Positions 14,650 through 57,922 are shown, counted from the stretch's first letter. The stretch: 64,000 nucleotides of DNA from Minisyncoccota bacterium (GCA_041653755.1 JBAZEU010000003.1:18738-82737), one strand, 5' to 3'. Numbers and translations: made by a program. Notes: a model not told the origin generated them from the letters alone.

Positions 14650-15003
14650 AATCGGCAAGTCAAACGATAGCTCTTATCAGCTTTGTGCTGATAGGAGAGG
14701 AAAGTCCGGACACTCGCCAATTTGGCAAAAATAGTGGCTAACAGCCACCTAGCGAAAGCTAAGAGGTGCGATCAGAAACGTCCTGAGGCGAAAGCCAAAG
14801 GATAGCCCAATCCTAAGCTAGAAGGCTAAGCTCCACCATAGGGATAAGAAAGCGGAGATGAAACGGCTAAATTCCTTATTGAGTGCAAGGTCGTGTCGGG
14901 CATATAACTTGTTTATGTGCTTGGAGTACCGCAAGAGCCTGAGAGTAATCGAAGGCCCAGACAAATTATCGTATAAACAGAATCCGGCTTATGACTTGCC
15001 GGC
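14650..15003 (+). ncRNA. rnpB: RNase P RNA (bacterial type A)
   Basis: conserved P4 halves GAGGAAAGTCCGGAC (5') and ACAGAATCCGGCTTA (3'); P1 pairing cggcaagtca/tgacttgccg; GC-rich structured RNA; followed by terminator. Confidence 0.85.
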
Positions 15004-15006
15004 TTG

Positions 15007-30661: not shown

Positions 30662-30726
30662 TCTTATAACAGCTTGAAAATCTACTAACGAGATTTTCTT
30701 TTAAAAACAAAATAAGGAGGTAAAAC

Positions 30727-30942
30727 ATGGGATGGAAATTGGTAATATTGATTGTGACATTGGTTGTACTATTGACGGTGTTCCTTAGAACTGGCCTAAA
30801 ACTGTTTTTCGAAAAGGAAAATGACAATGGCGTTTTATTTATCGCCGCCGCTACATTAATCGCCATCGCTATAAACTGTCTTTTTGCAGTAGGATTAGCT
30901 CATTTAGCGCATTGGTTATGGCAATGGCAACCAATAAGATAA
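30727..30942 (+). CDS. small 2-TM membrane protein (71 aa), hypothetical
   Basis: strong SD AAGGAGGTAAAACATG; two hydrophobic helices. Confidence 0.5.
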   Translation: MGWKLVILIVTLVVLLTVFLRTGLKLFFEKENDNGVLFIAAATLIAIAINCLFAVGLAHLAHWLWQWQPIR

Positions 30943-30953
30943 GGAGGATTCTT

Positions 30954-31091
30954 ATGAAAAAGTCCGGCAAAAAAGGATTACTGAAAGGGATAAAAAATCG
31001 TGATTTACATTTAGCCGATTTGATCGGCGATAAAGTGCCGAAAAAACGGAAACAGCACAAAAGGAGGAAAACGTGCCAACCACAAAAGTAA
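30954..31091 (+). CDS. small basic protein (45 aa, MKKSGKKGLLKGIKNRDLHLADLIGDKVPKKRKQHKRRKTCQPQK), hypothetical
   Basis: SD TAAGGAGGATTCTTATG; not in ORF track (<60 aa); shares a duplicated AAAGTGCCGAAAAAACG segment with 31255-31275. Confidence 0.4.
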   Translation: MKKSGKKGLLKGIKNRDLHLADLIGDKVPKKRKQHKRRKTCQPQK

Positions 31092-31255
31092 TTAGAACAA
31101 TAGGATTAATAATTACATTTGCTGGAGTGTTTTTAATGATAAAATCTCCGCTGACCACCCTGAAAAGAAAAGTCCCGAAAAAATGGAAAATAGGATTCGC
31201 GATTTATCTTATCGGTTTCATGATCGTACTTTTATCACCAGCTTTCGAGCGGTGA
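31073..31255 (+). CDS. small 2-TM membrane protein (60 aa, GTG start), hypothetical
   Basis: SD AAAGGAGGAAAACGTG; two hydrophobic helices; overlaps preceding mini-ORF by 19 nt. Confidence 0.45.
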   Translation: MPTTKVIRTIGLIITFAGVFLMIKSPLTTLKRKVPKKWKIGFAIYLIGFMIVLLSPAFER

Positions 31256-31292
31256 AAAAGTGCCGAAAAAACGAAAACCAAATAAAGAGTAA

Positions 31293-56067: not shown

Positions 56068-57103
56068 TTACTGTCTAAGTATATCACTTTCAATGAAGAT
56101 TTCAATCTCGCCTTCTAAAACTTTTTCCGCTTGGGTTGTTTCCACGCCAGTTCTTGTGTCTTTTACCAATTTATACGGGTTTAAAACATAAGAACGAATC
56201 TGATTCCCCCACTCTGGTTTAACTTTTGTCCGCAGTTTCGATAATTCCTGCTCTTGCTGGCCTTCCATTAATTTAATCAACTTAGCTTTCAGAATTTTTA
56301 AAGCTCTCTCTCTATTTTGCGCCTGTGATCTTTCAACTTGGCATGCGACAGAAATATTTGTCGGAAGATGAATAACCCTTACGCTGGTCTCAACTTTATT
56401 TACGTTTTGGCCGCCAGGACCGGAAGACCTGAAAAATTCAAATTTTAAATCCTCTTCCGGAATTTTGAATTCTTTTTCATCAATTTCCGGCAGTTCCGGC
56501 AAAACTTCTACTAACGCAAAAGAAGTGTGCCGTTTTTGCTCTGGTGAAAAAGGAGAAATCCTGACCAAGCGATGAACTCCGGCTTCTTTTTTTAAATAGC
56601 CATAAGCATAATCGCCTTCTATCTCTACGGTAACATCGCCCGAACCCTCATCAATTGTTTTTACTTTCCAGCCCTGTTTCTGACTGTATTTAGAATACAT
56701 TTCACAAAGCATCCTAGCCCAATCCTCCGCATCTTTACCGCCAGCGCCGGCAAAGACAGATAAAATCGCCGACTGCTTGTCGTATTTTCCAGTAAAAAGA
56801 GTTTTGAGTTCTAATTTAGTGATTACCCGTTTTACCTCGTAAAATTTATCTTCATTGAAATCAACTTCCAACTCAACCAAAGATTTCTGGATTTTTTCAA
56901 ACTGCTCAACCAATTCTTTTATTTCTCCGAATTCTTTCAATTTTTCTTCGGCTCTCTGGCGTTCCTTCCAAATATCCGGATCGCTTATCTCGAATTCAAG
57001 TTCTTTTAAACGGATTTTTTTAGCGGCGATGTCAAAGCCGCCCGCCTAAGCGGCGGGTTTGCTCTTGCAGTTCTTGAAATTGTTGTAATAAAGTCTCGTT
57101 CAT
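56068..57103 (-). CDS. prfB: peptide chain release factor 2 with programmed +1 ribosomal frameshift
   Basis: ORF0 MNETLLQQFQELQEQTRRLGGRL ends at CTT TGA C (plus-strand 57031-57037) preceded by SD-like GGCGGGCGG; +1 frame continues LDIAAKKIRLKE...; SPF and GGQ motifs. Confidence 0.9.
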
Positions 57104-57218
57104 AATGTACTTTTATATTTTACCACAAACTCTTGACACCATCAAAGAATCTTTGCTATGATTTATTTTTTATAGTAACTGAACCTTACAAAATTAAAAA
57201 CGAAAGGAGGTGAAAACC

Positions 57219-57362
57219 ATGATACACGGCTGTAGAGGTCACACGGCAACGCAGATCAGCGGAAGAAGAAGCCACGCCAGCGGCACGAAAACGAAAGCAG
57301 TACACGGCGCAGCCCACCTGCGGATACAGGGCTCAAGCGTCCATTGTTGTCTAACGCTCTGA
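57219..57362 (+). CDS. putative 47-aa Cys/His/Gly-rich small ORF (MIHGCRGHTATQISGRRSHASGTKTKAVHGAAHLRIQGSSVHCCLTL) at the 5' end of a GC-rich noncoding unit
   Basis: perfect SD AAAGGAGGTGA 5 nt before ATG; not in ORF track (<60 aa); coding status uncertain, may be leader peptide or fortuitous ORF inside a structured RNA. Confidence 0.3.
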   Translation: MIHGCRGHTATQISGRRSHASGTKTKAVHGAAHLRIQGSSVHCCLTL

Positions 57363-57652
57363 CGACGGAACCGGCCAAAAGGCCTTGGAGGAAGCGGAAT
57401 GCCATTTTTGACTTACCGCTGTAGAGATCCTTAAATCCCTTATAGAAAAATTTTTCAGGGAGTCGTCTATAAGGGTAATAACGTTTCCGATGGATTTCTA
57501 TCCATCCCTAGCCTGCTCCGTGTTCAGCATTCGCTAACACAGAGCAGGCCCCACATCATTATTCATTCATACCTTTCACCTTTCCGCCGTTCCGCTGAGA
57601 ACTCAGAATTTATTTACTGGAGGTACAAATCCTCCTCTGGCGGAACCAAACC

Positions 57653-57695
57653 ACGAGCGTGTGTTGTCTCAGACAATTACACGCTCGTTTTTTTA
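57653..57695 (+). terminator. strong intrinsic terminator ending the 57.2-57.7 kb GC-rich unit
   Basis: acgagcgtgt-N16-acacgctcgt followed by TTTTTTTATTT. Confidence 0.75.
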
Positions 57696-57762
57696 TTTAT
57701 TAACCAAAAAATATTTACTGTCTATTATTAACGATCGTTAAAGATAGACAGTAAAATAAAAA

Positions 57763-57800
57763 GAGCGCAGACCAATATGGTTACGCTCTTTCTTTTTTAT
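57763..57800. terminator. bidirectional intrinsic terminator (serves minus-strand tRNA cluster)
   Basis: agagcg-cagaccaatatggtta-cgctct with T-runs on both strands. Confidence 0.6.
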
Positions 57801-57828
57801 CTCCTTTTTAAGGAGAAGAGGCCGGGGC

Positions 57829-57922
57829 AGGATTCGAACCTGCATGGACTTATCGTCCTGCGAGTTTGCAGCCCGCTTTGCCTGTGCCTTATTACTCTTC
57901 GGCTACCCGACCGTTAATTATT
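57829..57922 (-). tRNA. atypical 94-nt tRNA-like gene, candidate anticodon GCA, long variable arm and ~10 extra nt in D region
   Basis: acceptor GGTCGGG/CCCGGCC, T-arm GCAGG-TTCGAAT-CCTGC, variable arm GGAC-GATAA-GTCC, anticodon stem GCGGG/CTCGC loop CTGCAAA (U33, A37), D-arm GCC-12nt-GGC; 5' half too long for canonical cloverleaf. Confidence 0.45.

Follow-up and report, generated by a model that had tools for sequence, protein, structure and literature searches.

In a 64,000-nucleotide stretch of DNA from a Minisyncoccota bacterium (GCA_041653755.1, JBAZEU010000003.1:18738-82737; the whole stretch is called the window here), the interval between prfB and two tRNA genes contains a small RNA gene that belongs to a previously undescribed family, which is real, separately transcribed, very small and lineage restricted. 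The host is a Patescibacteria genome (Paceibacteria/Wolfebacteria-like). We tentatively favor the explanation that the gene encodes an independently transcribed, structured, mRNA-like small RNA (sRNA) in which a first open reading frame (ORF1) opens the translation of a second one (ORF2), so that this new RNA is possibly dual-function. In the data, this explanation is supported by a conserved promoter and terminator, by conserved blocks and hairpins split by unconstrained or fast-evolving segments, and by two conserved units of Shine-Dalgarno (SD) sequence and AUG, numbered 1 and 2 below. The core of the unit measures about 390 nt, and the whole unit about 525 nt in the window genome. W designates the copy of the gene in the window, and L numbers designate the loci of relatives.

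Our starting point was a preliminary description of the region, drawn up from the sequence alone, whose named sequence features were all present at their coordinates. It had placed the unit downstream of prfB, but since prfB starts at 57104 and is read from the minus strand, the unit is in fact upstream of prfB and divergently transcribed. Its true 5' boundary is a promoter that had been absent from that description, from which transcription is predicted to start near 57169. On the 3' side, two terminators and a palindrome precede the tRNA-Cys and tRNA-Thr genes, which are on the opposite strand, and a glycyl-tRNA synthetase (GlyRS) gene completes the neighborhood. The high GC content and the lack of any ORF of at least 60 amino acids (aa) were both borne out: the GC fraction is 0.575 over 57215-57400 and 0.48 over the core (57170-57565), versus 0.37 for the whole window, and no ORF of that size was found on either strand between prfB and the tRNA genes (57105-57817). 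Comparison of the unit with the window showed a single copy, which ruled out a repeat or a miniature inverted-repeat transposable element.

Homologues were sought in 172 loci anchored on prfB or on the neighboring GlyRS gene (about 1.2 Mb from GTDB genomes, JGI metagenomes, ENA and Logan) by nhmmer, blastn, regular-expression motif scans and a covariance model. Only three of these loci, L081, L162 and L163, carry a homologous RNA, giving four members with W. The prfB product of L081 is about 84% identical to that of the window, and L162 has its 3' part cut off by the contig end. The third, L163, with a prfB about 76% identical, is AT-rich and very diverged; the automatic searches returned only L081 and L162, and L163 was recognized by eye from its position, its promoter, the 5' block GGAAAGGAGGTT...TGGCTGTAATAGGTC and its hairpins, which follow the same order as in W. 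In each of the three loci, the conserved promoter precedes the RNA, which is situated between the start of prfB and tRNA-Thr(CGU). The features of the unit shared with these relatives, described on W, are the following.

57133-57162, + strand: sigma-70-type promoter, TTGACA-18-TATGAT with a TG extension, matching the consensus at 11 of 12 positions.
57183-57213, + strand: A-rich leader followed by SD1, GAAAGGAGGTGA (57202-57213), 12 nt complementary to the canonical 16S 3' tail.
57219-57362, + strand: ORF1, an open frame of 47 aa behind SD1, not kept as a protein.
57229-57247, + strand: hairpin hp1, GCUGU-AGAGGUCAC-ACGGC, inside the conserved GGCTGTAGAGGT block, which is invariant in W, L081 and L162.
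57248-57386, + strand: variable region V1, GC- and purine-rich, unalignable between members.
57387-57434, + strand: SD2-AUG2 block GGAGGAAGCGGAATG (57387-57401), 15 nt identical in W, L081 and L162, with ORF2 (57399-57434, MPFLTYRCRDP and stop).
57437-57549, + strand: 3' domain, composed of hairpin Ha (57437-57475), AATAACGT (57477-57484), hairpin Hb (57489-57506) and hairpin Hc (57511-57549), captured by covariance model R1.
57760-57798, + strand: terminator 2, ancestral for the family and possibly bidirectional, homologous to the end of the L081 RNA and to the terminator of L165.

The promoter block, TTGACAyyMTCAAAG...TAwrAT, is common to five loci, namely, the four members and L165, where the site is empty. 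In L165, whose prfB DNA is 88 to 89% identical to that of L081 and L162, the RNA is absent and the promoter is followed about 25 nt on by the shared terminator. L161 and L167 have neither RNA, promoter nor terminator and harbor a partial tRNA-Thr copy instead, together with a GIY-YIG ORF in L167, while in L001, which also lacks all three, tRNA-Thr directly abuts prfB. The gene is thus lineage restricted, located in a variable tRNA-adjacent spot and, since close relatives do without it, dispensable. The intergenic spot between tRNA-Thr and prfB is a hot spot for small mobile elements. As a separate observation on this spot, the GIY-YIG ORF of L167 (72 aa; L167:4347-5121, between tRNA-Thr and prfB) is flanked by a partial second tRNA-Thr(CGU) copy and inverted AAAGCTGGCGGGG repeats, and L161:1-230 is a variant of this arrangement without the ORF.

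The Rfam scan proposed in the preliminary description matched no known RNA family. With Rfam 15, the interval 57105-57817 gave no match at the gathering score and, at E <= 10, chance-level terminator-type matches only (the best being MicX, with 26.5 bits against a gathering score of 75); L081, L162 and L163 gave no match either, and ARAGORN found no tRNA or transfer-messenger RNA (tmRNA) in the unit. The comparative check proposed there showed a region that is kept in a few relatives, with some compensatory changes. No match to the RNA was found by blastn in phage and plasmid collections, exact-pattern scans of viral contigs gave chance 15-mers only, and nhmmer found no real homologue there. 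Among the titles and abstracts listed by literature searches, none concerned a Patescibacteria RNA of this kind.

Conservation along the unit is strikingly uneven. Between L081 and L162, for which the background identity is 89.9% in prfB DNA and 81% in the promoter/leader region, 59 of 60 positions are identical from SD1 through hp1, and the SD2-ORF2-Ha-base, Hb and Hc blocks are about 90 to 97% identical. Overall, the conserved flanking blocks reach 98%, versus about 43% for V1 and about 48% for the tip of Ha, both with indels. Since the blocks are at 98% where prfB DNA is at 90% and the promoter region at 81%, the substitution pattern indicates that the scaffold is under purifying selection, while two modules, V1 and the Ha tip, evolve faster than the adjacent promoter/leader DNA. 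The hypervariable center spans about 100 to 150 nt, and V1 seems to evolve by local duplication. Two repeats were observed: L162 contains a 27-nt tandem duplication inside V1 (L162:207-262, 2.1 copies, 83% match), and ACACGGC occurs three times in W (57224, 57241 and 57302). Tandem repeats were rejected as a family feature, the 27-nt duplication being present in L162 only.

The unit is also structured. The sequence 57170-57700 folds better than 100 of 100 shuffles (z = -5.3; z = -2.9 for the core), with z-scores of -2.9 to -5.3 across W, L081 and L163. Folding recovered all the nested stems listed in the preliminary description, namely, cctgctc/gagcagg (57511-57549), ctga/tcag and ggagg-tacaaat-cctcc (57619-57635). 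Because V1 cannot be aligned, MAFFT and RNAalifold were unreliable over whole-length alignments. Covariance model R1, which covers Ha, Hb and Hc, recovered only W, L081 and L162 in the 1.2 Mb of loci; in its alignment of these three sequences, 83% of the cells were paired and 5 pairs had changed on both sides, compared to 28 to 48% and 0 to 2 in slid controls. These compensatory changes in Ha, Hb and Hc are supportive, although with three sequences they have little power. At the 5' end, hp1 takes the form GGCTG-TAATAGGT-CAGCC in L163, where a U.G pair has become U-A. Folding energy alone did not distinguish the two strands; the G.U pairs in hp1, in Ha of L162 and in Hc would become A.C on the other strand and, together with the orientation of promoter and terminator, they indicate an RNA read from the + strand.

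The perfect SD followed by an ATG, as announced in the preliminary description, was found with AAAGGAGGTGA at 57203-57213, 5 nt and the ATG at 57219, and the frame 57219-57362 encodes exactly the 47-aa peptide quoted there. The 16S 3' tail used for comparison is the canonical bacterial one, and no 16S gene lies within the window. SD1 corresponds to GAAAGGGGGTGA in L081 and L162, in which an A-to-G change would still pair as G.U, and to GGAAAGGAGGTT in L163. An open frame follows SD1 in every member: its ORF1 counterparts are MRFTGCRGSPAGKIKHRSLCIVSEPGRR in L081 (28 aa) and MRFTGCRGSPVRIMFAKRKSHTGK in L162 (24 aa), while L163 has no ATG and its frame, started by TTG, ends in ATGA overlapping AUG2. 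The ORF1 homologues share only their first 8 codons or so, and over the first 30 nt L081 and L162 do not differ at any codon position, a sign of constraint on the RNA rather than on the protein. Past this shared start, the sequences diverge with frame-breaking indels, so that the products, which are basic and polar, have in common only G-C-R-G, encoded by the RNA-conserved block. No homologue of ORF1 was found by a word search of 5.8 billion sequences, in Pfam or by a full HMMER pass over 1.84 billion representative proteins. Codon usage in the ORF1 frame was no better than in shuffles, and codon-usage scoring did not support any frame consistently open in all members.

ORF2, an SD-led frame that the preliminary description did not mention, behaves differently. 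The spacing between SD2 and the start codon is GGAGG-N7-AUG in W and GGAGG-N9-ATG in L163, and GGAGG-type SDs precede genuine genes in the W genome. ORF2 comprises 11 to 14 codons in W (MPFLTYRCRDP), L081 (MRRKFFLTDRLKII) and L162 (MFFLTDCLKII) and 5 codons in L163 (MKHFY). The insertion in L081 is of 9 nt and in frame, the stop falls in one alignment column across the three alignable members (W, L081 and L162), 2 to 3 nt before Ha, and four of the five substitutions between L081 and L162 are synonymous (P ~0.01), versus one of five in each other frame. This is the sole coding-type signal in the unit; being suggestive but not conclusive, it indicates that ORF2 may be translated and that the unit may thereby include a small-peptide component. 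In predicted ensembles SD2 is mostly paired (unpaired probability of 0.19 to 0.41), its masking partner lying inside ORF1 in L081 and forming a CUCC:GGAG hairpin in L163.

The two translation units also show a regularity of frame. Despite the unalignable spacer, the GGC-TGT codons and AUG2 share one frame in all four members, at distances of 171, 129, 138 and 84 nt (chance ~0.01 to 0.04). A single in-frame stop separates them in W (UGA), L081 (UAA) and L163 (UGA), and three do so in L162 (UAA). In-frame duplication dynamics, coupling of the frames or coincidence could account for this regularity.

Compared to L081, the W genome harbors an insertion of about 200 nt (57557-57759), in which four elements specific to W were delineated.

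57568-57585, + strand: anti-SD-like segment CATACCTTTCACCTTTCC, whose predicted pairing partners are SD1 and AUG1.
57583-57648, + strand: tRNA-like element with a 7-bp acceptor-like stem, a mini hairpin, a T-arm-like GGAGG-TACAAAT-CCTCC and A-CCA.
57653-57694, + strand: intrinsic terminator 1, -22.3 kcal/mol, z = -7.5, with a U7 tail.
57714-57755, no strand assigned: near-perfect palindrome of 42 nt, TTTACTGTCTAT...ATAGACAGTAAA with inner TTAACGATCGTTAA, -19.5 kcal/mol, z = -8.2.

When the full length was folded, CATACCTTTCACCTTTCC, a segment not found in L081 or L163, paired with 13 bases of SD1 through AUG1, and the unpaired probability of AUG1 was 0.10, versus 0.77 without the segment. The tRNA-like 3' end of the preliminary description proved to be real, since folding recovered it (-20.9 kcal/mol, z = -2.65; single copy in the window), but it is absent from L081 and L163 and hence not a feature of the family. 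Its acceptor-like stem, UCCGCCG/UGGCGGA, is local, 57583-57589 pairing with 57638-57644, and its mini hairpin has 4 bp; T arm and acceptor together share 92% identity over 25 nt with tRNA-Thr in L026. When the + strand of 57583-57648 was tested as a tRNA, ARAGORN made no call, no Rfam tRNA or tmRNA model (RF00005 included) matched at E <= 10, and neither a D arm nor an anticodon arm was present. Most plausibly, the element is a degenerate module of tRNA origin that may serve as a handle for processing. As an independent observation, the W genome encodes a class A bacterial RNase P RNA (14652-15006, + strand, 125.7 bits), and thus the enzyme that could cut at the tRNA-like element. The very strong intrinsic terminator of the preliminary description is terminator 1, with its seven U; a simple scan did not report it, its loop and inner stem being larger than the scan allows. 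The palindrome may act as a third terminator hairpin or as a binding site for a protein.

In the mechanism that we tentatively propose, ribosomes would load on the A-rich leader and the 12-nt SD1 and translate ORF1, whose peptide would be irrelevant, the frame acting as an opener as mok does for hok. Their passage through V1 would melt the pairing that masks SD2-AUG2, allowing translation of the 11 to 14 codons of ORF2. Since the partner of SD2 lies inside ORF1 in L081, while in L163 the TTG-started frame would run over the CUCC:GGAG hairpin masking SD2 and end overlapping AUG2, translation of the first frame would in both cases unmask the second. Ha, Hb and Hc, together with the terminator, would stabilize the transcript and may have another role at the RNA level. 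In W, a later 3' insertion would have added an anti-SD fold-back segment, a tRNA-like module plausibly cut by RNase P and a terminator of its own; with these additions, the RNA would stay closed to translation until processing. Among known systems, dual-function sRNAs (Staphylococcus aureus RNAIII/hld, Escherichia coli SgrS/SgrT and Bacillus subtilis SR1/SR1P) resemble such an RNA in being promoter-to-terminator units of a few hundred nucleotides with stable conserved hairpins and an internal SD-led micro-ORF. They differ in that there is no sequence or Rfam relationship and in that the unit studied here has two SD-AUG units, a hypervariable center, a Patescibacteria host and an extremely narrow, patchy distribution. 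Dual-function sRNAs form a functional class, whose transcripts both act as RNA and are translated; here the signs of such a dual role are indirect, namely, a conserved SD-AUG, the substitutions in ORF2 and the conserved, structured scaffold.

Several observations weigh against this explanation. Neither nhmmer nor the covariance model (5.9 bits) recovered L163, whose membership is a matter of synteny, promoter, 5' block and hairpin order. With only four members, two of them close and one truncated, covariation is almost without statistical power. Codon usage does not favor the ORF1/ORF2 frame, and ORF2 has a length of just 5 codons in L163 and, in W, a different C-terminal half. The predicted partner masking SD2 is not the same from member to member, such thermodynamic predictions being soft, and the loss of the gene in close relatives shows that it is not essential.

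A purely non-coding RNA is a rival that we consider rather unlikely. Its SD-like purine motifs (SD1, the hp1 loop AGAGGU and SD2) would be functional binding sites, either titrating 30S subunits or a protein that binds SD sequences or base-pairing with CU-rich targets, and the ORFs would be incidental. The density of GGAGG motifs fits this idea, with three within 420 nt of one strand where the window has roughly one every 2 kb, as do the conserved and structured scaffold, the RNA-level constraint on the first 30 nt of ORF1 in L081 and L162, and the lack of a coding signal in codon usage. However, both SD-like motifs are followed by an AUG at the canonical spacing of 5 to 9 nt in three of the four members, and the synonymous bias, in-frame indel and aligned stop of ORF2 count against it. 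Sequestering RNAs of the CsrB/RsmZ type likewise carry several SD-like purine motifs on a structured RNA that is highly expressed; here, in contrast, the motifs are few and stand before start codons, and the conserved loop motif is AGG(U), whereas CsrA recognizes GGA in the form A(N)GGA. The 64-kb window showed no csrA, hfq or smpB gene, which is weak evidence against a CsrB-like sponge, most of the genome lying outside the window. The likeness to hok of the hok/sok system, in which mok provides the opener frame, fold-back inhibits translation and 3' processing activates it, goes further: hok is also a structured mRNA of about 400 nt, patchily distributed, with an upstream opener frame and a 3' segment that pairs with the 5' initiation region, as predicted for W and L163. 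A type I toxin mRNA of this kind, or a small addiction or defense module, with translation locked by long-range pairing and opened by processing, would account for the opener ORF followed by an effector ORF and for the fold-back on the first ribosome-binding site. It would also explain the patchy presence, the gene being polymorphic among genomes whose prfB DNA is 80 to 90% identical and lying in a variable tRNA-adjacent spot occupied in another relative by the GIY-YIG element. We nevertheless judge it improbable, for ORF2 is 5 to 14 aa long, without a hydrophobic stretch of transmembrane length, and no hydrophobic or transmembrane peptide is encoded. A consensus scan revealed no minus-strand promoter inside 57170-57700 that could serve an antisense RNA (the only one nearby, 57145-57117, faces prfB), and from one member to another the fold-back partners lack homology. 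None of the Rfam families of type I toxins or antitoxins matched, there was no PADLOC hit or other protein partner to test, and the phage and plasmid collections held no copies.

Other accounts give the frames a different meaning. A small protein gene of about 60 to 72 codons, extending from AUG1 to the ORF2 stop and either decaying as a pseudogene or recoded by stop-codon readthrough, bypassing or termination-reinitiation, is quite improbable to us. The common frame of GGC-TGT and AUG2 and the single stop between them in three members speak for it, as does a post hoc observation: in each of the four, a codon cognate to the one preceding the first stop occurs in frame beside SD2. Yet the stops are at non-homologous positions and of differing kinds (UGA, UAA, UAA three times and UGA), three of them in L162 alone, the conceptual protein is unconserved across V1 and scores no higher than shuffles in codon usage, none of the databases searched contains a homologue of ORF1, and blocks conserved at 98% argue against a decaying pseudogene. 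Highly doubtful as well is a new type of translation-gated device, in which the first frame and the micro-ORF would be frame-locked and maybe joined by programmed recoding (readthrough, bypass or reinitiation), V1 and the Ha tip could be specificity determinants evolving under conflict, like guide or recognition segments, and a tRNA-like CCA tail would have been added in W. That the unit is a tmRNA-like or tRNA-derived RNA is effectively refuted as far as family membership is concerned. W does resemble tmRNA (SsrA) in size and in its 7-bp acceptor-like stem, T-arm-like hairpin, A-CCA end and short internal ORF followed by hairpins, but every defining test failed: the tRNA-like module is missing from L081 and L163 (L162 ends before that point), neither ARAGORN nor, even at E <= 10, the Rfam models for tmRNA and tRNA give a match, the acceptor stem is not formed by the 5' and 3' ends of the RNA, position 3:70 is C-G and not G.U, ORF2 has an SD and AUG of its own, unlike a tmRNA tag frame, and the window has no smpB gene.

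The preliminary description had left open a structured RNA with a fortuitous ORF or a small-peptide locus, and for the 47-aa ORF the former alternative is supported. The latter, a precursor of a ribosomally synthesized and posttranslationally modified peptide or of a metal-binding peptide, rested on the perfect SD and ATG before a Cys/His/Gly-rich ORF in W. It was rejected, its probability being close to nil, since the length, frame, sequence and Cys/His positions of ORF1 are unconserved, no homologues or domains were found, and the visible neighbors (prfB, the tRNA genes and GlyRS) include no maturation, export or immunity genes; in L162 and L163, ABC_tran (FtsE-like) and FtsX genes come after prfB. 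Leader-peptide attenuators such as pheL and trpL offer a last comparison, since they also have a short SD-led ORF with Phe codons directly before hairpins and a terminator. Unlike them, the unit shows no regulatory codon run and no same-strand gene downstream, convergent tRNA genes being next, and two or three serial terminators block read-through.

We know of very few regulatory RNAs in Patescibacteria, whose genomes are tiny. In this group, a strongly promoted, structured RNA with ribosome-binding sites of its own would count as one of only a few candidate loci for sRNAs or micropeptides. Near relatives gain and lose the gene, which occupies a hot spot next to a tRNA gene, and it offers a small, testable model of possible mutual gating between translation and RNA folding. 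Its general importance is limited by the very narrow distribution, and the kind of RNA is ordinary; the odd points are its hypervariable modules, the locking of its ORFs in one frame and the tRNA-like addition.

Some minor observations concern the neighboring genes. The prfB gene contains the classic +1 frameshift site CTT TGA C (57023-57029 in plus-strand coordinates, minus strand, in the region 57020-57062), and on the mRNA a GC-rich hairpin, GCCCGCCTAAGCGGCGGGT, stands directly upstream of it, an arrangement also kept in L081, L162 and L165. The tRNA with anticodon GCA (Cys) at 57818-57912 on the minus strand is atypical: it measures 87 to 94 nt, its D stem has 3 bp and a loop of 12 nt, some 9 additional nt separate the D arm from the anticodon arm, the variable arm is long (GGAC-GAUAA-GUCC), and its Rfam tRNA score is just 36.4 bits; L081, L163 and L165 do not have it at this position. 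Elsewhere in the window, at 30716-31260 on the + strand, three consecutive GGAGG-led small ORFs encode 71, 45 and 60 aa, two of which look membrane embedded and one very basic.

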